From: Cyanidioschyzon merolae
Lineage: Eukaryota
Assembly (NCBI GenBank): GCA_000091205.1
Contig: AP006493.2
Length of the DNA: 64,000 bases
Reading direction: 5' to 3' (one strand)
Positions 10,553 to 53,200 of this stretch are shown in pieces (positions within the stretch are counted from its first letter, which is position 1; each line of letters begins with the position of its first letter). The notes beneath the pieces are model-generated. The model was not told the origin of the DNA. It searched no databases and worked only from the letters and a program-made list of their open reading frames with translations. The translations under genes and the position numbers were made by a program.

Positions 10553-10821
10553 TGGAAACAAACGCCTTTCGAAAGTCGAACGACGCCAACCGTGTTCAGT
10601 TGTGGCGATCTACCTGCCCCAGACAAGATGTTTCCAATTGACGTGCAGACGCCTCCCCGTCTTTTTGGATCGGCCACGCACTACTACTTCCAACTGTTTC
10701 TCATATAGTTCCACTTTGACAGGTTGTCCCATAAAATTCTCTCTTGTCGACTCTGGAGGCCTTCTTTCCATCACCGCACATTTCCTTATATTGATAGCGG
10801 CGTTAAAGTCTCGTTCACAAA
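10553..10821 (-). ncRNA. candidate omega-RNA-like conserved 3' noncoding module of A1 (includes terminal hairpin cgtcgttcga-ctt-tcgaaaggcg)
   Basis: Runs from the nuclease stop codon to the element boundary. About 80-85% nucleotide identity to A2 38951..39140, although the proteins are only about 75% identical. The core ...aaaagacggggaggcgtctgcac... is shared with family B 3' ends. Confidence 0.35.
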
Positions 10822-13600
10822 CTAAATACGTTTCTTGCCATCATTGGCTGTACTTACTAGTGCAAGTGGCCCACGAACTTTCTCCATCCTTTCCATTTGC
10901 TCTTCCGTCAGTGCACCGTTCTTTGCTATTTCCTCAGGGCTCCGCTGACACTTTCCCATCTCAACCCTCTGAAGTGTACAACCCAGCTCGTGGCGTATAT
11001 ACGTTGTTTGAAATTCATCTACAGGTACTGTAACAAAACGCCGTGCACGCTCCTTGTTCACTCTCGTCTTTGGAGCTGGAGTAGTCCCTTTATGGGTCTT
11101 CCAGCGCCCTGCTCCGTATGCTAATACGAGCCTCTGACTTTCATCCTCTTTGAGAGCACTCAACTCATCGAAAAAATTCGCGAACGCCCGCTGCTTCCCA
11201 TTGTATAGATTCATTCGCAAACGAGCCCACCGGCGCTCGGTATACTCCTCCCACAGCGCATCCCAATGCGCAATGCGAACTTCCATGAATTTCCGAAAAG
11301 CGTCAAAGTCCGCTCCTCGGCTCGTCACCTCGCTCAAAGCTTCTAGGTGATCCTTCATTCCTGAATTCCAGCTCTCGATTTTCTTCCTCGCATTCATTAT
11401 ACCCGATTCTCGATAGTATCTCGCTATCGAGAACCTCAGTAGACGCATGTCTTCCCGACGTAAACTACCGTCAGTACCATCTTCCGCACACTTCGGTGCT
11501 GCGATGGTGATGATATTTGTGTTCCCAGCGTCCGCGCCAACGACAAAGTAGTTATGCTGCACTTTCTGTGTCGCTGGATCCGCCTCCTTCTTTTCTTCAT
11601 CCTTCACCGCGTCAAAGACAAGGTCGTTATCCTGCACCTTTTGCATCGCAGGATCCGCTTTTTTTTTTTCTTTTCTTCATGTTTCTTCACGGGCGCAGCC
11701 GAGGGCGGAACTGGACGATCTTTCTTCAACCGCTGATAGTGTACATTCAAGGCTACTCCATCGGTTTCGATCAACCCAGTGAATACCTTTTGTTTGCTGA
11801 CTTTGAGACGTTTGAAAGCGAAGATATTCTTCCAGTACGTCTCACGGGCTTCACCGGAGAACTCCTCCCTGCTAACATTGAACTCTGGACTGATCTCCCT
11901 AATGATGCCATGAAGGATTCTGGAGTCGATACTCACGAAATGTGACTTGAGGTTGCACAACAGAACGCCATTGAAGCGCTACCCCATTAGGACAGCCTCC
12001 CGTCTCTCCCACTCTTCATTTGTCTCTACACTCAGCTTCATTTCCGCCTTGCGTTCGAGCTCTCGGTCCAGAAACACGACATAGCGCAGAATGAGGCGAT
12101 AGTATCTTTCCTTATCTTTTTTCAACTCTGATATCTTTTCTGTTGGATTCGCCAGCCCCAAGACTGTACGGTGCTCTTGTCTAGCCGCACGGATTATAGA
12201 AGCTTCATTCGTGCTCCTGTGTCACTTTTTCTTGTCGACAAATTCGATCTCATCTTCATACTTTCGATCGTTCTTGATGCCACTGATAATCGCCCATTTT
12301 CCTTTGCGAGAGATGCCCGAGTAGAGTGCTAGCACGGCGTGTATCATGAAAAGTTCGAGGTTCACGATCGGTTGGTTCTTCAGATTCGTGAGGTACTTAA
12401 TCGCCCCATAGTCGTAAACATCCGAGTCACCCCTGTATCGGGTACCCTCGAAGCTATAAAAGGCATGTTTTCGTGCAGGGCGTGCACCAGCTCATTTTCC
12501 CTTCGCGCTTCCTCTGTGCCAAGCATCAGGTGACGAATAAAGGTCTTATCGAAAAACTCGTCCGGAATCTCGACCGTTTCCATGTGCGTCACTTCGCGAT
12601 ACACCTCACTCGCCAAATGCATCAGTCCTGACGACGCCTTGACAATACTCTTGGAGTATGACGCAACACGTCTTTCGATAGCGTCTCGCAACTTGTCCCT
12701 GTAGGGATCCTTGATATGTCCAAGAAGAAAGGTTTTCACCACCATCTCGTCGCACAGTTGTCATTCTTGCCGCTTACGACGTAGGGCCTCTCCATTTCGG
12801 TTCTACTTCTCTTCCTTTTCTTCTGGACCTGGTACTGTTTTTTGTTTTCTTCTGGCAGCCAGCGACACTGAGCCTCTAGGATCGTGGACTTGCTCTTCCA
12901 TAACTTTTCTTTTTTTAATTTTTTGAAAAAGAACGCTCTTTTACAGCTTGCGTCACACACCGCGAAAATTCACTTGAATGAACTTGCTTGAGGGCTGAAA
13001 CACAATTGAAATGAAAAAGTATTCTTTGCTACAACTTCAATGCAAATGCAACTTGTGTGTTGGAACAACAAGAAAAAGACTGGTTAGGATCGAGTTTCCC
13101 TTCAACGACACCGTGCATGTCGCGTCTCGTGACTGCCTTCTCCCCCAGATGCGCGTATCGAGCGCACCGTATAGGAAGAAAGGCAGAGACTCACGGTTCA
13201 CTATCAACGTTGTAACAGTATCTTCCTCCTCTATGATAAACGTTAAAAGGAGGGCAAATGTTTCCTTATTTTGGAAAGTTTACCATATAGGCGAAAGTTC
13301 CCGCGAGCTGTACGAGTCTGCTGGTGAATGCGGTGTGCGCCGCGCAGTGTACAAAATTCCATGCGCTTCCATGCGCTCAGCTGTGCTAGTAAGTAGAAAA
13401 GTCGTCAGTTACAGAGCACGTGTGTATGCCACTTGCAGATCCTGAAAAGGACAACTTCTTCACATTTTACGTGGGAGATGCAGGTTTAGATCTACTCCAA
13501 GTTATAGATTCTTCAAACCACAGGGTGACGCACCCATTCAATCACAGTCGTGGCTGCGAAAATGCAGCTTAATTGGATGCGATTTCATTGTTGTTCTAGA
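10553..13600 (-). mobile_element. Fanzor1-like (eukaryotic TnpB-like RuvC nuclease) element, family A copy A1; coding region about 10822..12960 is disrupted
   Basis: Minus-strand ORF pieces are homologous to A2 piece by piece: a K/R-rich region (12736..12960, ...QKKRKRSR...), MVVKTFLLGHIKDP..., ...GPANPTEKISELKKDKERYYRLILRY..., ...[15 protein letters not shown].... They include Ruv[17 protein letters not shown], the zinc-finger-like VPVDEFQTTYIRHELGC...KCQRSPEE, and RuvC-III FVNE-TLTPLSI, which is broken by a TAG and a 1-nt deletion relative to A2's FVNRDSNAAINI. There is also a tandem ~55-bp duplication plus a T11 tract at about 11600..11670. The about 190-nt 3' noncoding tail and about 900-bp 5' noncoding region are conserved with A2. 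Confidence 0.7.
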
Positions 13601-19329: not shown

Positions 19330-21175
19330 TTTCCGTACCGTTGTTGCGAACGGTGATGAACAGACAGGGGTGGAGAATGAAAAATGTATGCTTCTATGGA
19401 AGAGCGTCACGCGTTGTTCTATGCAATATCCACTTCGTTCCGAAACGCGAGCGCTTATCCATTTGCGTGATCGCCTACACATTGCGACGCGCCCAAGTCC
19501 GTGATCCACTTTATCCTGCGCGTGATCACTTCGTGACTTCTACTTTCCAAATTCGAATATCCAGCTCATTGTCAATGTTGGATCGCGTCAATCAACGGCG
19601 GTCAAAGTGTACGCAGCTGAGAATGGAGTTCTGCTGTTACTTGTGCCAGCATGTGCTCCCCCGCTCGATGCAGTTGAAGGCATCTTCTCTGTTGCCGAAC
19701 GCAGATTTGCGCTCACAGTTAAGCAGAGGAGTCGTTCGCGTCTGCGACAACTTTTGTCGACAAATCACTCTCTACATTTAGCCGCCTTGAACTGCTGTAC
19801 TAGTTGTCTACTCAAGGGAGACAGGTACCGGAAAGCGTGTCCGTCCATAGATACTTTGCGACGGAGATTGCGACGGATATGTGCTTGAGGAAGTTCAAAT
19901 ATATACCTTGAAAAAAGAGGAGGGTTTCAATCGAAATTTGCACACAAAGCATCTTAATCCCAAGTACGGATATGGAGACGGAATACATTGCCCAAATCCA
20001 GGCTATGCCGCCAACAAGAAGAGAAGCCGATGAAGGAAACGTTCTTATTGCGCGAATATGAAGCACGCAAGCGACTTCGTGAAGAGCATATGCCGAGCGC
20101 GTTCATGAATTCTCTTTTACTAGGAGCAAATTGAGAAAAGTTCACAGGCACCATCCCTCCGATGAAAAACAAATCTGCATATATTCTGTGGGAACCAGGT
20201 ATGAGTCGCGAAACGATACACATTAGCATGCATTCAAATTATATGAACAGAGAGATTCTATGGTGCACGTGATTCTAGAGTTGAACCCCGCCATGCCCCT
20301 TGCAATACCCAGGAAATCAAGATGACAGGCTCAAAGACCGTACAGGAACGCAGATGAAGCTGATCAACTTTGCTGGACTCGGTATTATCGTGAATTGAGC
20401 ACTGCGAAGACCAAGAGACCTACCAGCAATAAAAATGACGGCTTCAGGATCCATTTCGACGATCTGAGCAACTCATGGAGGAGAGCGGATTGCCTCGACC
20501 GTTTCATTCAGAAAGTTAGTGAGCGAGCAAATGGCTTCTGCGGACGATCTTGCACAGGCGTTTGAAACACCGCGCTATCTTCGCCCGCGGTGTCAGCATT
20601 ACGAAGGCCAGAAGCGCGCTTACGCCAACTTCTTCGATATTTTGAAAGTAAATGATCACGATGTCGCTTGGTATCATGTTAGCCGATGGCGCTGAGCATG
20701 CGCGAACACTCCAATGCTGCTGTCCTGCTCCTTCGACTGGAGCTTACAACTAGTGCGAGAACTGATTCTTCATCATGACCATCGATTTGCTCAGGACGAT
20801 GCACACGCATCCTGAGCACAGGTGCACGCTGAAACAGGCAGAGAAAAAACGCGTGAGATGGAGGCGGATGCATGAGCTTGTGCAGGGTAAGCTTTCCGAG
20901 CATCAGATGTCGATGCAGTCGAGGTTTCGAGGCTCGCTACAGTGTGCTTTCACCACCAACCAAGCGTGCAAGCAGTTTCCGCGTCGAGACTTGAACGCCA
21001 CGATAAACATCTGTAGATTCCTAGAAGTGCGAGCGCGTCCAGCAGATTTGTGTCGAGTGAATGTGTGATGTAGTTGTGTTGTACTCAATGAGCGCATTAC
21101 ATGGAAAGCGGAAGACTTTGGATAATATAGTTTGGTGACTAGGAGAGATTCATTGCATGCACGCCTGAAGCAACC
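19330..21175 (+). mobile_element. family C Fanzor-like element, degenerate/internally deleted copy C1 (the 3' fragment 20683..21175 is clear; the 5' part is weaker)
   Basis: 20683..21175 is the reverse complement of C2 24815..25310 and contains the ORF ...RRDLNATINICRFLEVRARPADLCRVNV* (RuvC-III-like). 19430..19560 encodes LSICVIAYTLRRAQVRDPLYPARDHF, homologous to C2's LFICMIAYISRNGQVRSSLHPAREDF. Confidence 0.5.
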
Positions 21176-21556
21176 CAATATTCTTCGTTGCGCTGATCAG
21201 ATTAGCAAGGCCGGAGCAATGTGTACGTATATCAGGAAAGATTTTGCGAGGCGATTGTTGAACGATAACTGCGTTCAATTATTCGACATTACTGAGTGTA
21301 GGGCTAACCCACCGAGCATTTTTCTTTCCATGCGCTACTCTGGTTACTGAACCCTGTCCTTTGCTGCTCAAGCAAAGCTCTTTGCTCTATGGTGTAGCAG
21401 ATAACTTCCGAGTACGCTCCTCCAATCTCTAAATTTTCGGGTAACGATCCTACCGTCTTGAGCTTTTTGTTCACTTAGCGCCAAATTCTTTGAAAAAACG
21501 ACTCTATCCGCGGATTCTTCAAGGTTTCTCTTTAATGTGGCCAATAGAGTTTTCCA

Positions 21557-23080
21557 ACTCAAGTTTGTTTCACTCTCGCTGCAGTGGATGCCAGGAGATG
21601 CAACTCTCTATGCAGCGCAACGTATAGATTGTAGACGAATTGCTTCTAGGGTACATTTTTTACTGAACGGCGGAAGGAAGACAGCGTACATCCATCAGTT
21701 CAGTCACACCGCAGTACTCAGATTACAGATGATTAATGAAAGAAGGAAAAATACAGGTATATGCCATCCGCACCAAAAACCGATATTCTCACAGATTGCT
21801 TGTGGCCAACGGTAGGAAACGACCCGTTGATCACCTTAATGAGAGCAAAAGCGACACCAGAAGCCGCGACACCCGTCTCTGTTTCTGAACAGCTTGTTTA
21901 CGTGGTCCTGAAAGCACTGGGATACAGCCGCACAAGAATGTTCAGTTTCACGCATTTTCATCTCCCACCGAAATCGCAATGACAGCGTTCCTAGAACGTC
22001 GTGATCGGTATGAAGCACAGGGAGGTCGGTTGCTTTTTTCGATAGATGAGAATTCCATCGGACGAACCGGTCGGAGCGAACATGCGTATTAACAGAGCAT
22101 GGAGCCCGTTGTATATACAATCGATCTCAAAGAGAACGACGATATAATTTGTTCTAGGCGCAGTGGATACATTTGGTGGCTCTAGTTTTAACTCCCCGAG
22201 AAGGCGCATAAAATCCCTCCCACTTTTTTAAATTATTGAAGACTTTTCCTCGACGCTAGGCGACGTCCTTCTGTTGGCCAACGTAGCGTTTCACCGGTTT
22301 CCTTGTGTTCGAGTTTTGCTGATTCTGTCGGGGTAGAGATGCTTCTAATTCCTCCCTACTCTCAGTAGCAGAACCTCATTGAAGAAATGTTTTTTATCAT
22401 GAAATGTAATGATCGCTCCATTGGACGAATCGCTAGACCATTCAGCACCGTAGCGCCGGGGCATACTTCGTCCTTGTTCCGCAAGTGATTCTCGCTCCAG
22501 GAAGAGATTTAGCTGAGGTCATGAACAAGTGCGTTCATTTTCAAGAAATTGCACCTAAGGAATGAGCTGCGGAGCTCATTTCAAAAGGTCGAGAGGGGGA
22601 GAAGCCAGCAGGGCGCTTCGGAGATAGGAAAGCACAGGGAGCTGACAGGGCAGCAAATGGCAATGAGGGCAAGGGATATAGGAATATTTGCATTGTCGCG
22701 TTCCAGCAACGGCACTGCAAGCATTGAGTTCGTGAACTTAGGCTCCAAAGCCGCCATCAATATCAGACAGTGTGAGGTATTGAAAACGAGACCCGCGGAG
22801 CTGAGGCGAACTTACTTTGTGGGGCGGCCTCTCAGAGAAGAAGTGTACAAGTTGAAGCTCCAGCCGATAGCATTCGGCCGGGCAAAACACTGGAACGCGT
22901 CCGTGCGTGGGTAATATTGAACCCCTACGGGTTGTGGCGCATTACTCATTTAACCTACAGCAAACTGAGCCCGTGGATAGACGTTTACTCACGGCCCGTT
23001 TGGGGTTTCAACAGCCGCAACTGGCTACGTCTCTGGTTTGTAGATGTTCATCGTCGCGATTCCTCAAAGGGGACGTTTGT
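21557..23080 (+). mobile_element. TnpB/Fanzor-like element, family B copy B2 (degenerate)
   Basis: The 5' 250 nt align to the reverse complement of the B0 5' end. ORF 21761..21982 (...SVSEQLVYVVLKALGYSR...) is homologous to the B3 N-terminal ORF. A RuvC-I remnant sits at about 22100..22200 (nucleotide match to 1920..2020, reverse complement). The C-terminal ORF 22549..22914 has IEFVNLGSKAAINIRQCEVLKTRPAELRRTYFVGRPLREEV. Confidence 0.55.
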
Positions 23081-24734: not shown

Positions 24735-27696
24735 AACGCCATTACCGTTCATCAGCTGCAAATGAAAATCGTTCCCTGTGTCTATCTAGGGCGCTCTAAT
24801 ATTTCTGGATGAGTAATCCGTACCGCACCAGTGCGTTGCTTCAGGCGTGCATGCAATGAATCTCTCCTAGTCACCAAACTATATTATCCAAAGTCTTCCG
24901 CTTTCCATGTAATGCGCTCATTGAGTACAACACAACTACATCACACATTCACTCGACACAAATCTGCTGGACGCGCTCGCACTTCTAGGAATCTACAGAT
25001 GTTTATCGTGGCGTTCAAGTCTCGACGCGGAAACTGCTTGCACGCTTGGTTGGTGGTGAAAGCACACTGTAGCGAGCCTCGAAACCACGACTGCATCGAC
25101 ATCTGATGCTCGGAAAGCTTACCCTGCACAAGCTCATGCATCCGCCTCCATCTCACGCGTTTTTTCTCTGCCTGTTTCAGCGTGCACCTGTGCTCAGGAT
25201 GCGTGTGCATCGTCCTGAGCAAATCGATGGTCATGATGAAGAATCAGTTCTCGCACTAGTTGTAAGCTCCAGTCGAAGGAGCAGGACAGCAGCATTGGAG
25301 TGTTCGCGCATGCTCAGCGCCATCGGCTGCTGCTGTAGGATGCGACTTATCTGTCAGTCGCTTTCCGACTCATGAGATAGACTGGCGAACGCATGCGTCC
25401 CGCCTCCGTACAGCCTGGCCCGCAGGCGGTCCTAACGCGGTCTCGAGTGTTCGTACCGTACTTCGCCCGCATGAGTGATCTAGATACCAATGTACGCGCG
25501 TCATGAGGCGTCGAGGGGTGCTCCCTCTGTTCGATACGGTACTCAGGGCGTCTAGAAGGATCCTCACGCCGCATGCCGCTCGTCAATATGCCTCCTGCGG
25601 TCCATCATGCCCAACTCTCGATGACGCCCAGCCCCCGAACTGCTGAGCAGCCCGATCCGCTTTCCGCTCGGTTCTTTTGGTCGTTTCTTCTCATTCTCAG
25701 GTGCGGCGACCGCGAGGAGGCCCTTCAACGCGGGATCCACACGCATCCCAAAGTGCGCCTCCTGTTCCACTCTATACGAGGGACAATGAGTCTCGCGTGC
25801 CCGACTCAGGCGTAGCCATCGGAAAATCTATGCAGATTGATATTCTGTCGGCCCCCATGGTTCCTCTAAGTTTCTCTCCATTTGCTCCGTGTGGATGAGA
25901 ATTCTTGGACGCGCTCGCCAGACGCTCTTCACAAAGTTGCCTGTGTGCTTCCTATTTGTGCGCAGACACCAGCAGCAGCTCACTGAAAACGCCATACACT
26001 ACCGAGCTGGTTTGCGGTGATATGGTGGCCATGATCTGACTGTTGGGTACCGCATCGAACAGACGCTCAAGGTAACTGGTGCGCTCGGACTCGCGACGGG
26101 ATTCGGCGCTGCTCTGGCGCGCTTCGTTCAGGGACAGGTGCTGGCGTAAGGTACACGGAACGAAGGCATCGCGCTTCCACCATTATTCGGACGCAATGTC
26201 CGTGGGTGCGAATCTGAGAGCTACGCAGTGAGCTCGGACGATCTAGACTCACTATCGCTCTGTTCATGACGTCTCCTACGAACTTGCAGCCAACTCGATG
26301 TCCTCCGACATTGGCGCCCCGTTGGCCTCCATCAACACCCCAAGAAAGCCTGCCACCAATCGTCACTTTTGCGGTCCAGCGAGCGGCTGCCAGATCGCCC
26401 CCGGGATGCGTCTCTTGAAGCGCTCGACGTTGGCCGGCAAGCTGGTTCCGTTTTTGCTTCGCGGTTCGTTTGATGCTTTTCTGTACCAGCGCTGCAGATG
26501 TCCCGATCTTCCACGTCGTGCAGCTACTCGTCAAGGTATTCTGCGAAGCGGGTGAGCAAATCTCTGCTCCTGCAATCAGGCCGCATTCCAGCTCCGGTCC
26601 CGATTATCAGTTGCTTTGCCGTGCATAGGTTCGATCGGAATTTCCAGAGGAATCAGGACAGACGGGAGCCCCGCGACCGAAAGTCGTGCGAGTAGTTGTC
26701 TGAGGGGCTGCGTCAAGCCAAGGCACGCAAGATGAGTCTTGCCCGAAACAAGCTTCGCTTTCCGAATGCCGTCCAGCATCTCGCTTATTGGGGAATACTC
26801 TCCGTTGACGTGTTTCAGTAGGGTGGCCTCGACAATGATTTCAGAGTTTGCTGTCCGCTCGCGAAGATTTTTGGCCGTGTACCTACCCGTTCTTGTTGTG
26901 GAAGGATGTTCCTCTTCTTCGTCGGATGCGCGTTCCGCCTTCTCCATTTCCTGGCGGCGTGGTATCGATGCGGTGGCCAGTATTCATACCCGTTGTACTC
27001 TTTGAGGTTCATACGCTCCGTGTAATTGGTGGCACTGAAGCGTCCCTCTCATAAGTGTTTATCTACCACTCGCCAAATACCTCTTCATCACCGTCTCCAT
27101 CGTGAGCACGCCCGCGCAGCCGAGAGAGCTTCTCCGATCCCGCACACACACACACACTCGCACGAAAGGTGAATCCATGAAGTCCTCACGAGCAGGGTGA
27201 AGTGATGAACGAACTTGTCCGTTTCGCGATATGTAGGCGATCATGCAAATGAAGAGCCGCTTGGGGGATGCTACTCTCACCCTCACGTATATCTTCTACA
27301 CGAACAGCGGTTTGCCGGCCTTCGAGTATCCATACACGGGTAGGCCAGCTTTCTAGAATGGCGTCTCATCGAGAGAGACGAAACCCCGTCGCTCTTGTAG
27401 CACGCGTTGGAGTTTCAATACGAAAGTGATAGTTTGTCGTTCATCACGCGATGCTCTCACACACACGCGTGCTTTTTCTCTGCGGCAATCAAAAACTCTT
27501 CATCACCGTTCGTATCAACAGTACGGAAGCTTCAAATCCTCTGGCTTTTTTGGTAGTCTTTCTCAGAGAAGATATGGACTGGAATGGATTGGCGGAAGAC
27601 AGACTCTCGTATAGATAGACTTTAATAAGATCTGTTTTTAATATATGGCGTTCACGATACGGACAATGAGAGAAATCAATCATCCACCTGCTGACC
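24735..27696 (-). mobile_element. family C Fanzor1-like element, full-length copy C2 (2962 bp; about 99% identical to C3)
   Basis: Minus-strand ORF pieces: an acidic/K/R-rich region (MEKAERASDEEEEH..., ARKWRRRNAHPTKKRN); ...EATLLKHVNGEYSPISEMLDGIRKAKL, homologous to the A-family N-terminus; a candidate RuvC-I LSWGVDGGQRGANVGG; and the C-terminal ...FPRRDLNATINICRF... ending at 24941. The frames differ between pieces. Confidence 0.75.
27133..27147. repeat. (CA)n microsatellite inside C2 (also inside C3 at 50089..50103)
   Basis: cacacacacacacac. Confidence 0.8.
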
Positions 27697-35754: not shown

Positions 35755-35999
35755 CCAACTGCGCTCACGTATTTTGGCGCTATGCGGGAGTTCAACACAC
35801 TAGTGTGTCCCTAGGAGCTCTATGTATTCCTGATATGACGGGCGTCGATTCTCTGCGTGTCTGAACGCGCCCTCACGAACTTTTAAGATGGCCTTCCTCT
35901 GCGTGCTGAACGTCGTCGCTCGCAGACAGCCGCGGAATTTTTTGATTGACAAAACGTTTTCATGGGCCAGCTTTCGCCAGTTGTGCGCTTTTTCTTTTC

Positions 36000-38900
36000 T
36001 TTCTTTTTTTGTTTTCTTCTGTGCGCAGTGAAGTATCCATCGATCTGTGCCATAATTCCAAGTTACGTTACCCATCCTTCTTCTCCGATATACTGGTCTT
36101 TTCATACGTTCTATCGTGTACCGAGTGCCTGCCATGAGCTCCAGCAATAGCGCATACAGCACCGGTGCTGCCGCTGCACGGAGGCAGAACGGCGTTGCCG
36201 TACCACGGGGAGTATCAACTCGAGGCGTGATTCATTCAACGTGGAATCCGGATTCATAATCATTCTGGGAGCCTGCAAGCTCTGCAGACAGAACTACTGC
36301 CTGCGGCAGCGCGAAGCGATATGTTAGGAGAGAACTACGACCAGGGTGACGCCCAAACGCAGCATACCCGCTCCTAATCCCAGGATAAAGTGGGTTTCGG
36401 ACGAGCTGCTCAGACCTCTTGACAGCAACGGGCACTGGGGAGCATGAAGCACGAGTCTTGTAGACTCTTCCGACTCGCGGGACCTTCCGTCTATAAGGTA
36501 AACTTTCAACAATATTGAAACCTCTTCCCCCTTTCAACGTTCACCTTAGAGGAGGGAAAGAAATTATTATATCGCTGCTAGTTAGTCTAGAGTCTCTGTT
36601 CTTTGTTCTAAGTAGCGCGCTCGGTACGCGCTGCTCCATATCTGAAAGGCATGAGATACAACGAGCTTTTCGCCGTTGAAGGGAAACACGATCCTGACTA
36701 TTCGTTTACTTGTTGTTCTAACATAAAACTTGTATTTGCATTAAAGTCGTAGCAAACTATAGTTTCCAGTTCAATCGTGTTTCAAAGCTCGAGTTAGTGC
36801 ATTCAAGTGATTTTTCGCAGATTCTACCAGAAGCGCTCAAAGTGCGTACGTTTTCAAAAAGATAAAAAAGGAAAGTTATTGAAAAGGAATTGGAGGATCC
36901 CGGAGACCCAGTATCGCCAGCTGGCGGAAATAAACGACAAACGATGCCGAGCCCGGAAGAAGAGGAGAAGATAAAGAAGGAAAAGGGGAGGCCCGACGCC
37001 AAGGGCCGCAAGAAAGACGACAGTACGATGAGACGGTGGTGGAAGCCTGTCTTCTTAAACATGTAAGGGATCCGCACAAGGAAAATTTGCAAGATGCCAT
37101 AAGAATTCGTGTCCAGTTGTACCCCAGGAGTGTTCGTAAGGTTTCTCTAGGACTGATGCATTTGGTGAACGAGATGTATGGCGACGTGACGGACATCAAA
37201 ACAGTCGAGGTTCTGGGAGACTTATTCGACAAGCCCTTTATTCGTCACCTGATGGCTGGCACCGGGGAAGCGTCGAGGAGAAATGAACTAGTGCATGCCC
37301 TCCAGGAAAACTAAGCCAAACTCCGATTCGACGGTACTCGCACTAGGGTTACTCGGATATTTACATCTACAGAGCGATGAAGTACCTCATGGGCCTGAAG
37401 AACCATATGATCGTGAGCCTCAGTCGTTTCGTGATACGCGACGCCTTTGCGCTGTACCCGGGCCTGTCTCGCAAAGGAATATGGGCAATTATCAATGGCA
37501 TCACTAACGATGGTCAGAACGAAGACGAGATCGAATTTGTCGACAAGAAGACATCAAGCAGGAGAAAGAATGAGGATCCTGCAATCCGTGCGGTTATTCA
37601 AGGGCATCGTGCGGTATTGGGGCCGGCGAATCCAGCAGAAAAGATATCAGAGTTGATAAAAGACGAAGAAAGATACCATCGCCTCATCCTTCGGTATTTC
37701 GCGTTTTTGGACCGAGAACTCGAACGCAAGGCAGAGATGAAGCTGAGTAGGGGAAAAATGAAGAGTCGGAGAGACGGAAGGCTGCCCTAATCGTTAAGCG
37801 CTTCACCGTCGTTTCGCTGTGCAACATCAAGTCATAATTTGTGACTATCGACTCCGGACTCCTCTACGGTATCATGAAGGAGATCAGTCCCGAGTTCAAT
37901 GTTAGCAGGGAGGAGTTTACCGGTGAAAACAGGGAGACGCACTGGAAGAACATCTTCAGTTTCAAACGTCTGAACGTGAGCAAGCAGAAGTTCTTCACTG
38001 GGATGATCGAAACCGATGGAGTAGCCATGTGTGTAAACTATCGGCGCTAGAGGACAGATCATCCATTTCCGCCCCCGGTTTCGCCCGTGACGAAGGAAGA
38101 AGAAAAGAAGGAGGCGGATCCTGCGATGCAGAAAGTGCAGGATAACGACTTTTTGGTTGGCGCTCACCCCGGAAACACAAATATCATAACCATCGCTGTA
38201 CCCAGGCGTGCGGAGGATGGTACTGACGGTAACTTGCTTCAGAAAGACATGCGTTTTTTGAGGTTCTCGAGAGCAAGATTCTATCGAGAATCGGGAATCA
38301 TGAATGCAACGAAGAAAATTGAGACATGGAATGCAGGAATGAAGGATCACGTAGAAGCTTTGAGCGAGGTGACGAGCCGCGGAGCGGACTTTACAGCTTT
38401 TCTGAAATTCATGGAAGTTCGTGTTGCCCATTGGGATGCGCTGCCGGAGAAGTATACCAAGCCCCGGTGGGCTCGTCTGCGAATGAATCTGTATTGTGGT
38501 AAGCAGCGGGCGTTCGCGAATTTTTTCAATCAGCTGAGTGCCCTGAAGGAGGACGAGAGCCAAAGGCTCGTAGTGGCGTATGGAGCAGTGCGATGGAAGA
38601 CCCAAAGAGGGTGTACACCAGTTCCAACGACAAGATCGTACAAGGAGTGCGCAAGGCGTTTCGTCACGATACCTATAGATGAGTTCCGAACATCGTACAC
38701 ACACCATGAACTGGGGTGCACACTTCAGAGGGTCGAGATGGAAAAGTGCCAGAGGAGTCCTGAAGATATAAAAAAGTACGGACCGCTGACGGAGGAGCTA
38801 ATGGAAAGGAGAGCGAAAGTTCGAGGATTGCTTGCATTAGTAAGTACAACCATTAATGGCAAGAATCGTTTCGAGTTTGTGAATCGAGACTCTAACGCCG

Positions 38901-39140
38901 CTATCAATATATGGAAATGTGCTGTGATGGATCCAAAACCTACGGAGTAGACAAGAGGGGACTTTATTAGACAACCTCTCAAAGTGGATATATATGAAAC
39001 AAAGTTGGAATCAGTAGTGGATGGCCGATCGAAAAGGACGGGAGGCATCTGCACCTCGGTTGCACACGTCTTGTCTAGGGCGGGTTTCTCGCCACTGCTG
39101 TGCACCGCTGGCGTCGTTCGACTTTCGAACGGCGTTGTTG
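36000..39140 (+). mobile_element. Fanzor1-like (eukaryotic TnpB-like RuvC nuclease) element, family A copy A2; coding region about 36944..38950 is disrupted
   Basis: ORF pieces: a K/R/E-rich region (36944.., MPSPEEEEKIKKEKGRPDAKGRKKDD), 37036..37314, 37377..37790, 37841..38050, and 38087..38950. The last carries Ruv[18 protein letters not shown] (the catalytic Asp of A1's GADAG is His here), the zinc-finger-like [17 protein letters not shown]...KCQRSPED, and RuvC-III RFEFVNRDSNAAINIWKCAV. There is an in-frame TAG at 38048..38050. The ATG is lost (ACG/GTG at 37033..37038). About 900 bp of 5' noncoding region are conserved with A1. Confidence 0.7.
38951..39140 (+). ncRNA. candidate omega-RNA-like conserved 3' noncoding module of A2, ending in hairpin gcgtcgttcga-ctt-tcgaacggcg (39111..39134) at the element boundary
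   Basis: The 190 nt after the stop are about 80-85% identical to the A1 tail. They contain a core (gatcgaaaaggacgggaggcatctgcac) that is also present at the 3' ends of B0, B1, B3. Homology with A1 stops abruptly right after the hairpin. Confidence 0.35.
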
Positions 39141-39217
39141 GTGTGCGGTTTTATAAAGTTAACGTAACTGCTATCACTACAGGGAGTTGAACTGCCCGGG
39201 AACCTTAACTTGTTGCA

Positions 39218-40384
39218 ATGACTCCGCCGTTCTTCTGCCACACCTTCTGTTCAGCGGGGGCGTTTGTCCCGGTGAACGTAAGCCACTTTCGTGCTCAGTT
39301 GAGAAAGCAGGAGACTTGTGAGGAACTTGCTTCGAGGGACGCTTGGGGTCGCTCCAGAAGCAGGGGGAACTGTTTGCATGGTAAGAACTTGCCGAGCAGG
39401 CACCGGCAAGCGTTGCTTTTACTTGGAACGGCGACTGCAGGCTCCAGTGCAGAGGTTCGACACGGCTCGCCAAAGTCGCGAACCACCGAGGCAGTTGAGT
39501 TCCTTCTCGCTAAGAGGGCCTCCATAGACGCCGCTCTTAATGACGCCGTGCAAGCAACCTCCGTTATGAATGCCCGCCTAGCGGAGGCGATGCGTTACTC
39601 TTTGCTCGCCGGAGGGAAACGTGTACGGCCGGCACTCGTCTTAGCTGCGTGCAGAATGTTTGGAGGTGTCGATGAACAGGCGATGCCCACGGCCGTCGCA
39701 GTGGAGATGGTTCATACAATGAGCCTCATTCATGACGATCTCCCGGCGATGGATAATGATGATTTCCGGCGCGGACGTCCAACAAACCACAAGGTTTACG
39801 GTGAGGAAGTAGCCATCCTTGCTGGGGACGCGTTACTTAGCGAGGCGTTCTCGCAGATCGCAGAGAAAACTCCAGCAACCCTTGTACCACCGAGTCGCAC
39901 GCTTGAGGTCATTAGACGCCTCGGAAACTGTGTCGGCTTACATGGCTTGGCAGCCGGACAAGCGCTTGATCTTGAGGCGGAGGGAAAACCAGCAGATGAG
40001 ATCAGCCTACGCATGCTGGAAACGATCCATCTGTACAAAACCGCCGCATTGTTGCGCTTTTCCATCACCGCGGGAGCGATTCTAGCAGGTGCCTCAGTAG
40101 ATGACATTGATTGTATGGAAAGCTTTGCGAACAAAATTGGTCTTGCTTTTCAAGTTGCGGATGATGTCCTGGATGTGACCGCGACGACCGAGACACTTGG
40201 CAAGACTGCCGGAAAAGATGTTGCGGCCGAGAAGGCGACGTTTCCGCGCATACTTGGTCTTGAAGAAAGCCGAAAGTATGCTGAAGACTTGGTCAAGGAG
40301 GCGAAGGGAGAACTCGCCAAGTACGGCGACCGGGCATCATTGCTCTTGGGTTTTGCGGATTTCATCATTCAGCGCGCGAGCTAG
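39218..40384 (+). CDS. GGPS: geranylgeranyl diphosphate synthase (polyprenyl synthetase family), plastid-type with N-terminal extension
   Basis: 388-aa ORF starting with ATG. First Asp-rich motif LIHDDLPAMDNDDFRRGRP, second Asp-rich motif FQVADDVLDVT, and GKRVRPALVLAACRMFGG. Confidence 0.9.
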   Translation: MTPPFFCHTFCSAGAFVPVNVSHFRAQLRKQETCEELASRDAWGRSRSRGNCLHGKNLPSRHRQALLLLGTATAGSSAEVRHGSPKSRTTEAVEFLLAKRASIDAALNDAVQATSVMNARLAEAMRYSLLAGGKRVRPALVLAACRMFGGVDEQAMPTAVAVEMVHTMSLIHDDLPAMDNDDFRRGRPTNHKVYGEEVAILAGDALLSEAFSQIAEKTPATLVPPSRTLEVIRRLGNCVGLHGLAAGQALDLEAEGKPADEISLRMLETIHLYKTAALLRFSITAGAILAGASVDDIDCMESFANKIGLAFQVADDVLDVTATTETLGKTAGKDVAAEKATFPRILGLEESRKYAEDLVKEAKGELAKYGDRASLLLGFADFIIQRAS

Positions 40385-44559: not shown

Positions 44560-46125
44560 TACCGGCGACAACTCAGGCTGGATTTGTACTCAAGAGCCGT
44601 CCATAATGTAAACGCTCAATGGAGCGAAACTGTCTCACAACCATAGTGTAAATTAATACCTACCCACAGACGCCACGCAGCCTTTTTGACCAGCCGTATG
44701 CTATCTGTTACAGCTGCTGCTTGTACATCTCCAGCCTGAGAGGCTGCCCCACAAAGTTCGATAGTGTCTGATCCTTGGATCTCGTCTTCAGCAATCCACA
44801 TCGTCTGATGTTGACGGCGGTGTTGAAGTCTCGGTTTTACGGACTACATGCGTTTATTGCATCTGGTTGAGCTCATCAATGCAAGGATTCCCAGAACTCG
44901 CACCCTCTGGCCCACAGCAGCCTCTTCGTCGTCCCGTCGGGCATACACCTTTTTTTCTATGTCCCTTCTTTTTCGCATTCTTCTTTTTCACTTGCTTTTC
45001 GTCGTTAACTGGTCGGCAAGCTGCGGATGTTTTCACATTTTCCGGCAGCCGGCAATGGCGGAGCTCTAGGATGCCTCACTTCAATGCCAGTACCTTTCCC
45101 CTGGATTTTTTATTTCCTCAAATGAAAGCAGTTCTTTACGACCTTAAACGAGAGAGTTTCCAGAGGGAGACGGAATTGCAGAAGAAAGACGAAATGTGTT
45201 CCAGTCTGCCACCGTATACTGACCGCTTCAGCGATTCGCTCTGGAAAGCGACTGTTAAGTTTTGCGACAAAAGACCCTTCTTCGATATGGTCAAATCGTC
45301 GAGTCCACGCAGGAATGAAAAGCAGTTCTCCCCCAGTAGAATCCGCAAATGCTCAAACGCAAGAGGAACCGTGAAATGCAGCGTTGTCCGATAGACGGAC
45401 GTCGCCAGACGGCAGCGGAAAGTGTTTAGTTATTCGAAGATGTGGTTGGTACTGCTGGATGAGCCTTCTCTATGAGTGAAACTGATGCCACCAAATGAAT
45501 CCACTGCAGCGAGAACCGATGATGGCGCCCTTTTCTTAGAGTTCAGTCGAACATTCAACGGGCTACCGCTCCGCGAATTCCCATACATGCTCCGAAATTT
45601 TCGTCCGAAACACTCCTCATAGACTGAAAAAAAACCAACGTGCCGCTGCTTCATATCGATAGAACCTTTCCTGGAACTTTGTTGTAGTAGCGATTTCGGT
45701 AGACGCTGGCCGTGGATGAACTAGGACTCCTGTTTTGCGACTGAATCCCAGTGTTTTCAGCACAATATGAACAAGTTGTTGAGAGACAGAGACGCTCTTG
45801 GTGGCTAATATAGTTTCTTTCAGCTCCCGTAAGGTGATCAACAGCTCGTTTTCTATCTTTGACAGCAAGCAGTTCTCAGTAATATCGGTACTGGGCGCGG
45901 GTTGCATATACGTGTTTCTTTCTGTGCTCCTCAAGCACCTGCGTATTGTTATATCACTGAATTTAAGAAGGAAAACAGTCCTCGTCGCTCTGTTGAGCAA
46001 AGCATATGTCCTGCGAACAATTCGTGTATGGTATATAGAGTGCATTGCATCGTGATTTCGATTTCCTGATATACACTGCGAAATAATATTCTGTCACACT
46101 CAGCGGGGGCGGAATAAAACTCAGC
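44560..46125 (-). mobile_element. TnpB/Fanzor-like element, family B copy B3 (degenerate)
   Basis: Minus-strand N-terminal ORF 45617..46045 (...SVSVSQQLVHIVLKTLGFSRK...). RuvC-I-like SVLAAVDSFGGISF (45430..45654). C-terminal remnant NRDFNTAVNIRRCGLLKTRSKDQTLSNFVGQPLRLE at about 44700..44830. The 3' block ggtcaaaaaggctgcgtggcgtctgtggg and the 5'-end nucleotide homology to B0 define the limits. Confidence 0.55.
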
Positions 46126-47680: not shown

Positions 47681-50642
47681 AACGCCATTACCGTTCATCA
47701 GCTGCAAATGAAAATCGTTCCCTGTGTCTATCTAGGGCGCTCTAATATTTCTGGATGAGTAATCCGTACCGCACCAGTGCGTTGCTTCAGGCGTGCATGC
47801 AATGAATCTCTCCTAGTCACCAAACTATATTATCCAAAGTCTTCCGCTTTCCATGTAATGCGCTCATTGAGTACAACACAACTACATCACACATTCACTC
47901 GACACAAATCTGCTGGACGCGCTCGCACTTCTAGGAATCTACAGATGTTTATCGTGGCGTTCAAGTCTCGACGCGGAAACTGCTTGCACGCTTGGTTGGT
48001 GGTGAAAGCACACTGTAACGAGCCTCGAAACCTCGACTGCATCGACATCTGATGCTCGGAAAGCTTACCCTGCACAAGCTCGTGCATCCGCCTCCATCTC
48101 ACGCGTTTTTTCTCTGCCTGTTTCAGCGTGCACCTGTGCTCAGGATGCGTGTGCATCGTCCTGAGCAAATCGATGGTCATGATGAAGAATCAGTTCTCGC
48201 ACTAGTTGTAAGCTCCAGTCGAAGGAGCAGGACATCAGCATTGGAGTGTTCGCGCATGCTCAGCGCCATCGGCTGCTGCTGTAGGATGCGACTTATCTGT
48301 CAGTCGCTTTCCGACTCATGAGATAGACTGGCGAACGCATGCGTCCCGCCTCCGTACAGCCTGGCCCGCAGGCGGTCCTAACGCGGTCTCGAGTGTTCGT
48401 ACCGTACTTCGCCCGCATGAGTGATCTAGATACCAATGTACGCGCGTCATGAGGCGTCGAGGGGTGCTCCCTCTGTTCGATACGGTACTCAGGGCGTCTA
48501 GAAGGATCCTCACGCCGCATGCCGCTCGTCAATATGCCTCCTGCGGTCCATCATGCCCAACTCTCGATGACGCCCAGCCCCCGAACTGCTGAGCAGCCCG
48601 ATCCGCTTTCCGTTCGGTTCTTTTGGTCGTTTCTTCTCATTCTCAGGTGCGGCGACCGCGAGGAGGCCCTTCAACGCGGGATCCACACGCATCCCAAAGT
48701 GCGCCTCCTGTTCGACTCTATACGAGGGACAATGAGTCTCGCGTGCCCGACTCAGGCGTAGCCATCGGAAAATCTATGCAGATTGATATTCTGTCGGCCC
48801 CCATGGTTCCTCTAAGTTTCTCTCCATTTGCTCCGTGTGGATGAGAATTCTTGGACGCGCTCGCCAGACGCTCTTCACAAAGTTGCCTGTGTGCTTCCTA
48901 TTTGTGCGCAGACACCAGCAGCAGCTCACTGAAAACGCCATACACTACCGAGCTGGTTTGCGGTGATATGGTGGCCATGATCTGACTGTTGGGTACCGCA
49001 TCGAACAGACGCTCAAGGTAACTGGTGCGCTCGGACTCGCGACGGGATTCGGCGCTGCTCTGGCGCGCTTCGTTCAGGGACAGGTGCTGGCGTAAGGTAC
49101 ACGGAACGAAGGCATCGCGCTTCCACCATTATTCGGACGCAATGTCCGTGGGTGCGAATCTGAGAGCTACGCAGTGAGCTCGGACGATCTAGACTCACTA
49201 TCGCTCTGTTCATGACGTCTCCTACGAACTTGCAGCCAACTCGATGTCCTCCGACATTGGCGCCCCGTTGGCCTCCATCAACACCCCAAGAAAGCCTGCC
49301 ACCAATCGTCACTTTTGCGGTCCAGCGAGCAGCTGCCAGATCGCCCCCGGGATGCGTCTCTTGAAGCGCTCGACGTTGGCCGGCAAGCTGGTTCCGTTTT
49401 CGCTTCGCGGTTCGTTTGATGCTTTTCTGTACCAGCGCTGCAGATGTCCCGATCTTCCACGTCGTGCAGCTACTCGTCAAGGTATTCTGCGAAGCGGGTG
49501 AGCAAATCTCTGCTCCTGCAATCAGGCCGCATTCCAGCTCCGGTCCCGATTATCAGTTGCTTTGCCGTGCATAGGTTCGATCGGAATTTCCAGAGGAATC
49601 AGGACAGACGGGAGCCCCGCGACCGAAAGTCGTGCGAGTAGTTGTCTGAGGGGCTGCGTCAAGCCAAGGCACGCAAGATGAGTCTTGCCCGAAACAAGCT
49701 TCGCTTTCCGAATGCCGTCCAGCATCTCGCTTATTGGGGAATACTCTCCGTTGACGTGTTTCAGTAGGGTGGCCTCGACAATGATTTCAGAGTTTGCTGT
49801 CCGCTCGCGAAGATTTTTGGCCGTGTACCTACCCGTTCTTGTTGTGGAAGGATGTTCCTCTTCTTCGTCGGATGCGCGTTCCGCCTTCTCCATTTCCTGG
49901 CGGCGTGGTATCGATGCGGTGGCCAGTATTCATACCCGTTGTACTCTTTGAGGTTCATACGCTCCGTGTAATTGGTGGCACTGAAGCGTCCCTCTCATAA
50001 GTGTTTATCTACCACTCGCCAAATACCTCTTCATCACCGTCTCCATCGTGAGCACGCCCGCGCAGCCGAGAGAGCTTCTCCGATCCCGCACACACACACA
50101 CACTCGCACGAAAGGTGAATCCATGAAGTGCTCACGAGCAGGGTGAAGTGATGAACGAACTTGTCCGTTTCGCGATATGTAGGCGATCATGCAAATGAAG
50201 AGCCGCTTGGGGGATGCTACTCTCACCCTCACGTATATCTTCTACACGAACAGCGGTTTGCCGGCCTTCGAGTATCCATACACGGGTAGGCCAGCTTTCT
50301 AGAATGGCGTCTCATCGAGAGAGACGAAACCCCGTCGCTCTTGTAGCACGCGTTGGAGTTTCAATACGAAAGTGATAGTTTGTCGTTCATCACGCGATGC
50401 TCTCGCACACACGCGTGCTTTTTCTCTGCGGCAATCAAAAACTCTTCATCACCGTTCGTATCAACAGTACGGAAGCTTCAAATCCTCTGGCTTTTTTGGT
50501 AGTCTTTCTCAGAGAAGATATGGACTGGAATGGATTGGCGGAAGACAGACTCTCGTATAGATAGACTTTAATAAGATCTGTTTTAAATATATGGCGTTCA
50601 CGATACGGACAATGAGAGGGATCGATCATCCACCTGTTGACC
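47681..50642 (-). mobile_element. family C Fanzor1-like element, full-length copy C3 (2962 bp; direct repeat of C2)
   Basis: Same ORF pieces as C2, with only a few amino-acid differences (for example NLDCIDI vs NHDCIDI, NGKRIG vs SGKRIG). It includes the RuvC-III-like RRDLNATINICRF ORF at 47887..48180 and the (CA)n run at 50089..50103. Confidence 0.75.
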
Positions 50643-52444: not shown

Positions 52445-53200
52445 GGGTTTTTTTTTGCCGATGCCGAAACGCTTTTATAAACCATCGATCCCAGATTGCC
52501 GGATGGATGGATTTTAGCTTTCGGGAAAGCGTCCATCATGCTGCCACACCAAGATCCATGACCTGTTCTCGGATGTAATGGTCTTTTTGTTCGTTCTATC
52601 GTGCACCCAGTACCTGGTTTGCCGCACCCGGCTTAACTCTTATATCTCGCTGGTGCCGATGCATCATGGAGACAGAGCGACTTTGCTGTGCCAGAGAGGG
52701 CATCGGCTAGAGGCGTGTTGCACTCGACACAGGATCGGAGAACACAAGCACTCTGGAAACCTGCAAGCTGTACATATAGCCCTGCTGTCTGTAGCAGCGC
52801 GAAGCTGTATGGTAGGAGTCTACTACGACTAGTGCAACGCCCAGGAAACGCTTTACGACTCCTAGTCCGAGAATAAACTGCGTTTCGAACGAGCTTCTCA
52901 GGTCTCTTCACAGCACTAGGCACTGGGAAACGTATGTATCACTGGCCCGGAAGAGTCGTCCGGCTGCCTGGAGCTTTCCCCAAGAGCATAAACTATCGAG
53001 AATACGGAAACACTTTCACGTTTTTAACGTTTCCTGTAGTGGAGAAGTGAACTATTTTCGATCTGCCCTATGTGTAGGCCTCTGCCCGGAACATCGAATG
53101 CAGTGCACCGCGTGTATAGCCCTGTTTTAAAGGACACTGAGGAGACAAAAGCGAATGGCAAGTATGGTGTATTGAGCGCTGTCGACCGGCCGGAATGAAA
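52445..53200 (+). repeat. solo copy (A3) of the family A element 5' noncoding region, with no nuclease ORF attached
   Basis: Collinear nucleotide homology to A2 36000..36660, for example ggtctttttgttcgttctatcgtgcacc vs ggtcttttcatacgttctatcgtgtacc, and ...gcgaagctgtatggtaggag... vs ...gcgaagcgatatgttaggag.... This is also reflected in the similar spurious ORFs 36232..36537 and 52633..52923. Confidence 0.45.

Follow-up and report, generated by a model that had tools for sequence, protein, structure and literature searches.

The 64,000-nt stretch of DNA analysed here (the window; contig AP006493.2, assembly GCA_000091205.1) comes from the red alga Cyanidioschyzon merolae and contains a decayed copy, A2, of an element, family A, that encodes a nuclease of the Fanzor1 type. 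A preliminary description of this DNA had taken the ~190 nt that follow the apparent stop codon of the A2 nuclease (38951-39140) for a conserved noncoding module, the scaffold of an omega RNA, which ends in a boundary hairpin and recurs in a second nuclease family, B. Our analysis divides this segment differently: ~125 of the 190 nt are almost certainly what remains of the last 42 codons of the nuclease, and the noncoding part is the 58-67 nt that lie beyond them. It is this short right end, perhaps with some of the adjoining codons, that we now regard as a candidate omega-RNA scaffold. We place moderate confidence in the explanation as a whole, namely that the segment is the 3' end of a dead Fanzor1 copy, with a coding tail and a noncoding end that may have served as such a scaffold.

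The Nuclease Frame beyond the Apparent Stop Codon

Because A2 carries both a TAG at a hypervariable codon (38948-38950, plus strand), where its 287-codon open reading frame (ORF) ends, and a 1-nt deletion, the sequence 38951-39075 looks noncoding. The assertion that it lies after the nuclease stop does not hold, however: the segment keeps the frame of the RuvC-III motif NRDxNAAINI, the TAG of A2 is TCG in A1, the other family-A copy of the window, and the continued nuclease frame reads ...RPPELTRENFIGQPLKVELYEKKLEAVVGGRSKKTGRRLHVSWRRFV*. The deletion, which falls in the G run of GACGGG (39037-39042), is what puts the A2 tail out of frame. In A1 the tail reads STRENFMGQPVKVELYEKQLEVVVRGRSKKTGRRLHVNWKHLVWGR* in the frame of the RuvC-III motif, and the A1 interval that had been presented as its post-stop counterpart (10553-10821, minus strand) itself contains that motif (10787-10812) and is set off by a combined nonsense and frameshift lesion at ~10822.

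Homologous proteins bear this reading out. When the A2 ORF joined to its read-through tail served as the query, 229 proteins were found, and many of these cover 97-99% of the query, tail included. The consensus of a 14-protein alignment ends in ...NRDFNAAINIRRCAVLExRPPELTRENFxGQPLKVELYEKKLEAVVGGRSKKTGRRLHVSWRxxV, and 9 of the 14 stop at the same point, which corresponds to the family's normal stop codon (TAG, 39076-39078, plus strand) in the consensus of the genomic copies described below. The last 42 codons in A2 (38951-39075, plus strand) are a remnant of the sequence TRENFxGQPLKVELYEKKLEAVVGGRSKKTGRRLHVSWRRFV. Distant relatives also possess a peptide at this C-terminal position; the closest of them, P0161 and P0162, retain R.xF[IV]GQ[PR]L, and in the wider family the C-terminus consists of RPxxLxR, ~15-20 further residues and a short basic end.

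The history of the tail was followed in 80 related loci from hot-spring metagenomes, whose 3' ends, together with A1 and A2, were reduced to 44 copies that are <97% alike. The tail is open and in frame in 22 of these 44 non-redundant copies. Calculated from differences from the consensus, an omega-like ratio of the tail is 0.51 in the nuclease frame and 1.01 and 1.56 in the two other frames; for the RuvC-III region it is 0.30. Of the variants present in at least five copies, 71% of those in the RuvC-III region and 42% of those in the tail are synonymous, against an expectation of 22-24% (p = 6e-9 and 0.006, values that overstate independence because the copies are related; internal controls are provided by the two other frames and by the singletons). 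Singleton variants are neutral in both regions. We take the singletons to reflect decay after insertion and the variants in at least five copies to reflect evolution in active lineages. Since the relatives carry a coding tail too, and in view of these selection ratios, the tail is old coding material under a constraint weaker than that of the catalytic core. Fourfold-degenerate sites vary alike in the tail and upstream of it (0.170 vs 0.171), so nothing suggests that an RNA constraint is laid over the coding tail.

The codon at which the A2 ORF ends deserves separate comment. The second base of this T[N]G codon is T in 15 of the 44 copies, G in 14, A in 8 and C in 7, which makes it the most variable of 1100 sites. 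A mutation private to A2 is ruled out as the origin of the TAG, as the allele occurs in 7 of the 44 copies, scattered over the tree. The variability may reflect a hotspot of mutation, a linker on which constraint is relaxed or a short isoform that is tolerated. The canonical Fanzor1 proteins SpuFz1 and PpFz1 have their C-termini just past the position of this codon.

The block that families A and B have in common finds its explanation in the same reading frame. A 98-nt block is indeed present, as had been reported, in three family-B copies, all on the minus strand and with 63-73% identity: in B0 at 1141-1238 (RANFKGQPLRIEMHRAKLRLVAGDRSKKTRRRL), in B1 at 4986-5083, where it shares a 174-codon open frame with DFNAAINI, and in B3 at 44667-44764 (SNFVGQPLRLEMYKQQL*...). 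A fourth copy, B2 (22735-22916, plus strand), retains the RuvC-III motif and the coding tail (RTYFVGRPLREEVYKLKLQPIAFGRAK). What recurs, however, is the coding C-terminus. The B copies read RANF[KM]GQPLR[IV]E..., with SNFVGQPLRLE... in B3; where the A and B tails differ, the changes are for the most part synonymous or conservative (e.g., GGA/GGG, CAA/CAG, AAA/CGG and GTC/GTG); the likeness extends only to the codons for ...RRL (GGCGTCTG, A2 ~39052), past which the B copies have their own unrelated 3' sequence with no hairpin of the A type; and the family-B database relative P0157 reads through the tail in frame. For these reasons the block is a conserved peptide and not a shared RNA, and the conservation of the tail, this block included, comes from selection on the protein. 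Conservation across paralogous families thus loses its value as the signature of an omega RNA, the block being coding and the B copies being devoid of the A-type noncoding end. The family-B protein search yielded three proteins only, too few to define a noncoding end of the B type.

Within family A itself, A1 (minus strand) and A2 (plus strand) are homologous throughout the interval, as had been stated: 10656-10813 and 38885-39042 are 82% identical, and 10561-10665 and 39032-39136 are 79% identical. A separate alignment gives 79% for the tail and 80% for the noncoding end. The additional claim that the interval is more conserved than the coding region must be abandoned, for the ORF of the two copies is 83% identical over 792 nt as against the 79-80% of tail and noncoding end, all in nucleotides. 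Among the 44 copies the RuvC-III region has a mean variability of 0.111 and the tail one of 0.119, and the noncoding end reaches 0.190.

Layout and Limit of the Noncoding Right End

The noncoding end runs from 39079 to a point within 39136-39145, and 58 nt lie between the family stop codon and the position, 39136, at which homology among copies ends. It begins with a stem-loop, P2 (39079-39093, plus strand; GGCGG-GTTT-CT(C)GCC), the first helix, which has 5 bp and one bulged base and is paired in 91% of cells. The linker that follows (39094-39111, plus strand) comprises the conserved ACTRCTGTRCAC (consensus ACTACTGTACAC) and then a hypervariable CGCYGG. The density of common variants is 0.17 in the 12-nt conserved part of the linker, like that of codon positions 1 and 2, and 0.83 in CGCCGG; the linker is thus constrained, and the loops are hypervariable. 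Inspection by eye found no consistent covariation for a long-range pairing of the CGCCGG segment with P2. The terminal hairpin, P3 (39112-39134, plus strand), has a 10-bp stem with one U.G pair and a CTT loop, and is paired in 84% of cells. It is the boundary hairpin of the preliminary description, CGTCGTTCGA-CTT-TCGAACGGCG, which we confirm with its 10 bp in A2 and, with one mismatch, at 10563-10585 in A1; the pattern has no other occurrence in the window, with 0 matches expected by chance.

The proposal that homology ends at this hairpin is correct in outline. The similarity of A1 and A2 stops at 39136 and 10561, two bases past the stem, but the boundary is not razor sharp. Behind the hairpin comes a conserved TT, followed by ~9 nt rich in G and T (GTTGGTGTG; 39135-39145, plus strand, as delimited by information content); many copies share G[T/A]TGGTG, and TGGTG is present in about half. 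The flanks of the copies are unrelated from about +12 on, with the TT and the G/T-rich bias kept from +1 to +11. Information content is 0.8-1.5 bits at +1 and +2 and is at background by ~12 nt past the hairpin, which places the end of the element between 39136 and ~39145; a guide would therefore not begin at 39141, as had been supposed. The stretch 39135-39145 could be the very end of the element itself or else a target sequence for which it has a preference.

The right end also exists on its own. At four metagenome loci (L020:765-871, L029:374-458, L044:791-873 and L048:762-814), ~2.2 kb upstream of a Fanzor match, there is a solo family-A right end of ~105 nt with P1, P2, the linker and the hairpin, and with no ORF tail before it. 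It begins at GGAAGCGTCTGCAC (A2 ~39042) and is preceded by a long inverted repeat (AATAACGTAGAGGAGG...CCTCC.GCGCTACGTTATT). Because the four loci are ~80% alike over >3 kb, they represent one event. Such a solo end recalls the 'ghost' omega-RNA loci of Spizellomyces punctatus.

The Nuclease and the Identity of the Element

Neither Pfam nor a profile confined to family A found a Fanzor, and a profile of distant relatives was therefore needed to place the nuclease. Pfam gave nothing for the ORFs of the window, nor for the proteins P0009, P0012 and P0032; a match to PF07282 was weak (E 0.002-0.15), and the family-A-only profile had no Fanzor match among the sequences of the PDB. A profile (A4) of 48 distant relatives plus the family-A proteins P0009 and P0010, however, matches three solved Fanzor1 structures: PpFz1 of Parasitella (9cf0, E 6.7e-20), SpuFz1 of Spizellomyces (8gkh, 1.6e-12) and GtFz1 of Guillardia (9cer, 4.1e-6). 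When 1.84 billion representative proteins were searched with a profile, 1412 relatives (clustered at 50%) came up, and a length of 600-700 aa is common among them.

The hallmarks of Fanzors include the DPG motif in RuvC-I and a relocated glutamate (Yoon et al. 2023, PMC10711439). Both are present in family A. The RuvC-I motif of the family consensus is GADPGNTN, and the relocated RuvC-II glutamate, whose place is immediately upstream of the [TS][TS]/zinc-finger position, is the invariant E of VDEFRTSY, the aligned sequence in PpFz1 being dEFRTSSFCPKC. As for RuvC-III, its RD..NAA.NI motif takes the form NRDFNAAINI in the family; in the A2 nuclease it is NRDSNAAINI (38882-38911, plus strand), which in translation aligns to the NRD..NAA.N of the solved Fanzor1 proteins. 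The C4 zinc finger (CxxC...CxxC) between RuvC-II and RuvC-III, which belongs to the Fanzor/TnpB motif as originally defined by Bao and Jurka, is, in contrast, absent from the family-A consensus, where the aligned positions read THHE... and GLLALVSTT, and it is likewise absent from the consensus of the 48 distant relatives, which retain DPG, the relocated glutamate and RD..NAA.NI. Given this loss amid the other hallmarks, family A is a zinc-finger-less branch of the Fanzor1 clade and not a textbook member. The last residues of SpuFz1 and PpFz1, RPxxFSRxx, fall near the place of the A2 TAG; the family-A lineage and its nearer relatives have a longer C-terminus. Between the WED-like strands and RuvC-I there are acidic repeats of ~25 aa, in 1 to ~6 copies among homologues; we located them in P0002, P0004 and P0012, at ~38087-38160 in A2 and at ~11520-11650 in A1.

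An element of just this kind has been described from C. merolae. CMe-1A (Bao and Jurka 2013, Mob DNA 4:12; PMC3627910) has ~150 copies of ~3 kb, encodes Fanzor1 and has no terminal inverted repeats (TIRs); its copies share ~80% identity with their consensus, its target site duplications (TSDs) are undetermined, and its 5' 635 bp are common to another repeat (PMC3627910). Family A resembles it in organism, in its length of ~3 kb, in its many copies ~80% identical to their consensus, in its single Fanzor1 ORF, in its lack of TIRs and clear TSDs and in a modular 5' region shared with another repeat. It is very probable, then, that family A is both Fanzor1 and CMe-1A: the element fits the description in every respect checked, the match being one of description and not an alignment to the Repbase consensus. 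No TSD was seen at the ends of the family-A copies examined; the nine left junctions at 35938 showed neither a conserved flank nor a TSD, and the few left ends examined showed no hairpin and no conserved flank motif. The ~3 kb of the element have room for the Fanzor ORF alone; there is no second ORF, and neither a transposase gene nor an HUH/Rep gene is present. The 3' hairpins, the C-terminal tail and an RNA, which are treated here, were not described in the paper on CMe-1A (PMC3627910).

Possible Functions of the Right End

In every Fanzor that has been studied, the sequence encoding the guide RNA lies between the ORF end and the transposon's right end, and the guide derives from the flank (PMC10432273, PMC10530073). 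By analogy with these systems, an omega-RNA scaffold is the best single explanation for the last ~60-100 nt of family A, although we would put the chance that it is correct at about even. In intact copies, sense transcription through the right end into the flank would yield the omega RNA. Its scaffold would consist of P2, the linker (ACUACUGUACAC) and P3, perhaps with a few tens of nucleotides of terminal ORF sequence, and the ~15-20 nt that follow the end of the element would serve as the guide. The Fanzor1 protein would bind the RNA of the right end, as SpuFz1 does. As A1 and A2 encode no functional nuclease, any RNA from these two copies could act only with the protein of an intact copy. 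The proposal of an omega-RNA scaffold consequently survives in reduced form: the nuclease is a Fanzor1 and the last ~60 nt are noncoding, with a boundary hairpin and a layout like that of SpuFz1, but ~125 of the 190 nt that had been proposed are coding, so that the segment as first drawn is in large part the protein-coding exon that it was supposed not to be.

Several features of the copies speak for a structure in this right end. The named structure is paired in 85% of cells, a value reached by 2 of 500 shuffles, compared with 33-50% when the pairing partners are slid. One pair of P2 is G-C in 14 copies and C-G in 14. The loci L018 and L079 have a compensatory change from G-C to T-A in P3, and six copies carry, at the same terminal place, a register-shifted and T-rich variant of the 10-bp hairpin. 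The constraint on the linker beside hypervariable loops and the solo copy of the right end count in its favour as well.

Other observations weigh against a scaffold. The strongly covarying pair of P2 lies in two linked haplotypes and may represent a single event. The compensatory changes that the preliminary description had looked to as a check were not borne out by the statistics: RNAalifold finds next to no consensus structure (-3.99 kcal/mol), 54 of 500 shuffles match or exceed the covariation score of 0.141, which is not significant, and 110 of 500 reach the number of pairs changed on both sides. The fold z-scores of the last 100 nt are -1.0 to -2.5, with -1.4 for the antisense strand; in the stems, derived G.U pairs (23) are about as frequent as derived A.C (21); and the noncoding end varies like fourfold-degenerate sites, both in mean variability (0.190 vs 0.170) and in the density of common variants (0.41 vs 0.41). 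A covariance-model search, the other check that had been suggested, gave no hit at gathering score to Rfam 15 in the window and none with E<=10 in 38700-39300, a null that counts for little because the presence of any Fanzor omega-RNA family in Rfam was unchecked. On the side of the protein and its target, the zinc finger of the characterised Fanzor1 proteins is missing, an AlphaFold2 model (26-sequence alignment, P0009 first) was unusable, with a predicted local distance difference test score (pLDDT) of 34.7 and a predicted template modelling score (pTM) of 0.26, and the few left ends examined have no motif resembling a target-adjacent motif (TAM). Altogether, the evidence for a structured RNA is weak and mixed.

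Two other accounts of the right end must be considered, and we think each of them unlikely. The right end, and above all its terminal hairpin, might be a mobilisation signal that acts at the level of DNA, in single-stranded or cruciform form, an idea that is compatible with an overlapping omega RNA. The subterminal hairpins of IS200/IS605 and the 3' hairpin of Helitrons are the natural comparison cases. Such a signal would suit an element whose 3' ends are constant while its 5' ends are modular or truncated, in which a solo 3' end of ~105 nt exists and two different hairpin sequences occupy the same terminal position; the wobble pairs of the consensus (U.G and G.U) suit the top strand as DNA equally as they do an RNA, and the lack of TIRs and of determinable TSDs (PMC3627910; none were seen here) points the same way. 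It fits poorly, on the other hand, with the want of a transposase or HUH/Rep gene, with the left ends examined, where no matching hairpin was found, with a terminus unlike that of Helitrons (a hairpin and then CTRR) and with derived stem substitutions that look neutral. Outright membership in a Helitron-like or IS200/IS605-like group, with hairpins at both ends, a target motif and an HUH transposase, was considered and rejected, the hairpin at the right end being the only one of these features found, with no hairpin and no conserved flank motif at the left ends examined. Alternatively, the right end might have no sequence-specific function and be ordinary 3' untranslated or terminal sequence, in which similarity reflects common descent and gene conversion. 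Mean variability and common-variant density equal to those of fourfold-degenerate sites, a covariation score short of significance, ordinary fold z-scores and singletons that are neutral throughout are what this improbable account would lead one to expect. It leaves unexplained an uneven constraint, with a 12-nt linker that behaves like codon positions 1 and 2 beside hypervariable loops, the maintenance of pairing in 84-91% of cells despite substitutions, the persistence of the hairpin in a variant of different sequence and register, and the fact that every characterised Fanzor has a functional RNA in this place (PMC10432273, PMC10530073).

The original proposal, in which the whole ~190 nt are a noncoding scaffold conserved across families A and B, is largely refuted and in our estimation very improbable. 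Its attraction lay in the fact that SpuFz1 and PpFz1 end at RPxxFSRxx, at the position of the A2 TAG, so that the 190 nt lie where these systems have their omega-RNA region; moreover, the TAG allele is not confined to A2 but present in 7 of the 44 copies, and omega RNAs may overlap the ends of ORFs (PMC10432273). Against it stand the purifying selection on the region in the nuclease frame, a similarity of A and B that is found at the amino-acid level and stops where the tail of the ORF ends, synonymous sites in the tail that are no more conserved than those upstream, and B copies that have a different noncoding end. The account that we favour for the last ~60-100 nt is still that of a candidate omega-RNA scaffold.

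Genomic Setting of the Fanzor Remnants

The 388-aa ORF at 39218-40384, downstream of A2, is identical to the geranylgeranyl diphosphate synthase (GGPPS) BAM80451.1 of C. merolae 10D, by which the window is recognised as nuclear DNA of that strain. A self-blastn comparison and a repeat finder, applied to the window, provided the repeat map. Family A has two copies here, A1 (10561-13319, minus) and A2 (36462-39136, plus), which are 76-82% identical in the self-comparison. When the metagenome loci are taken into account, the 5' homology of A2 reaches beyond 36462, where the self-blastn pair with A1 begins, to 35938. A2, a Fanzor1 pseudogene with ORFs broken over several frames, can accordingly be assigned to 35938-39145 (plus strand); these limits are approximate, the 5' region being modular and the 3' end lying somewhere within 39136-39145. 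A1 (10554-13319, minus strand) is shorter, a pseudogene that is 5'-truncated or diverged; its recognisable parts are the hairpin (10563-10585), P2 (10604-10618), the coding tail (~10619-10748) and the RuvC-III motif (10787-10812). Besides their broken frames, both copies have mutations at the RuvC-I aspartate, the motif being AHPGNTN in A2 and ADAGNTN in A1.

The 5' part of A2 is a composite. Its segment 36081-36439 is ~70% identical to 52566-52927 (within the regions 35938-36462 and 52566-53044), and the homology of other loci to A2 begins at 35938, ~36056, 36237 or 36374. Such modularity is in keeping with the connection already published between CMe-1A and a short repeat, TE-N2_CMe.

The four copies of family B are more diverged, with right ends near 1122, 4953, 22916 and 44635. 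B0 and B1 share a block of 941 nt that is 100% identical (1635-2575 = 5415-6355, at a spacing of 3780 nt), although their 3' tails are just 73% alike, a disparity that suggests recent gene conversion or else a local duplication spanning the pseudouridine synthase gene at 3371-4774. A further duplication of 2.96 kb (24735-27696 = 47681-50642, 99.5% identical, with an inverted partial copy at 20681-21177) includes the end of a third Fanzor-like family, whose ORF at 24941-25234 (minus strand) terminates in ...CKQFPRRDLNATINICRFLEVRARPADLCRVNV*, a short canonical C-terminus without the long tail. With this duplication, the window holds at least nine Fanzor-derived remnants of three families.

One metagenome contig, L084, was considered as an allele of the GGPPS locus from before the insertion, and rejected. 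Its segment 1-1226 has a GGPPS variant (P0122) whose upstream neighbour is a different gene, the two parts meeting precisely at CGAACGGCG (window 39126). That gene is 99% identical to P0308, a 489-aa AMP-dependent ligase whose only named relatives are euglenid (Eutreptiella, Euglena); the protein P0308 continues past the junction, and the junction falls on a short sequence common to both parts (CGAACGGCGTT). The contig is most likely a chimeric assembly and hence uninformative on the insertion.

Comparison with Known Systems

Had the claim of the preliminary description held, it would have meant a structured RNA module common to different nuclease families. What the families have in common is instead the C-terminus of a protein, seen through the lesions of pseudogenes, and the case is a caution that the end of an ORF in a decayed repeat need not be the end of the gene. 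Both the element and the principle of an omega RNA encoded at a transposon's right end were already known. New, though unproven, is the particular stretch of ~60 nt put forward here as a candidate RNA region, the boundaries of which are defined; a further result is the loss of the zinc finger in the family-A lineage. Within the Fanzor literature that could be searched, only the 2013 description links the family to C. merolae. If the RNA were confirmed, it would leave the understanding of Fanzor systems unchanged, but a thermoacidophilic red alga would then contribute a compact pair of Fanzor1 and omega RNA, in which developers of tools could take an interest.

A first comparison is with the omega RNAs of SpuFz1, PpFz1 and GtFz1, which, like the family-A candidate, occupy the stretch from the ORF end to the transposon's right end and have a linker in addition to two stem-loops (Saito et al. 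2023, PMC10432273). As would be the case in the family-A candidate, the second stem abuts a guide derived from the flank and is variable (PMC10432273, PMC11423790), this stem next to the guide being the SL2 of Fanzor1 (Xu et al. 2024, PMC11423790). In GtFz1 the omega RNA extends over the last 17 codons of the gene (PMC10432273), and the putative scaffold of family A may do likewise with the last codons of its own. Solo copies of the RNA region are known in S. punctatus (PMC10432273) and Chlamydomonas reinhardtii (PMC10530073). The family-A end differs in having no right inverted repeat and a candidate scaffold of 58 noncoding nucleotides as against 75 nt, and its protein differs in the absence of the CxxC zinc finger and in its longer C-terminal tail.

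A second comparison is with the right end of IS200/IS605 elements, exemplified by the TnpB omega RNA of ISDra2. These elements are also without TIRs and TSDs, they have a subterminal hairpin at the right end that overlaps the guide-RNA region, and the nuclease ORF of an ISDra2-like element runs close to its end. Unlike them, family A lacks TnpA (Y1 transposase) as well as a demonstrated hairpin at the left end and a defined target motif, and its host is a eukaryote. One may nevertheless speculate, although we rate the idea as decidedly unlikely, that family A is a eukaryotic counterpart of the TnpB-only IS200/IS605 elements, that its two right-end hairpins are at once, on the sense strand, a mobilisation signal, as single-stranded DNA or as RNA, and the scaffold of a minimal omega RNA of ~60 nt for a Fanzor1 without zinc finger, and that the polymorphic TAG codon, placed at the C-terminus of canonical Fanzor1 proteins, switches between a short and a tail-bearing form of the nuclease. 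If true, this would explain the absence of TIRs and TSDs, the constancy of the 3' ends beside variable 5' ends and the existence of solo 3' modules.

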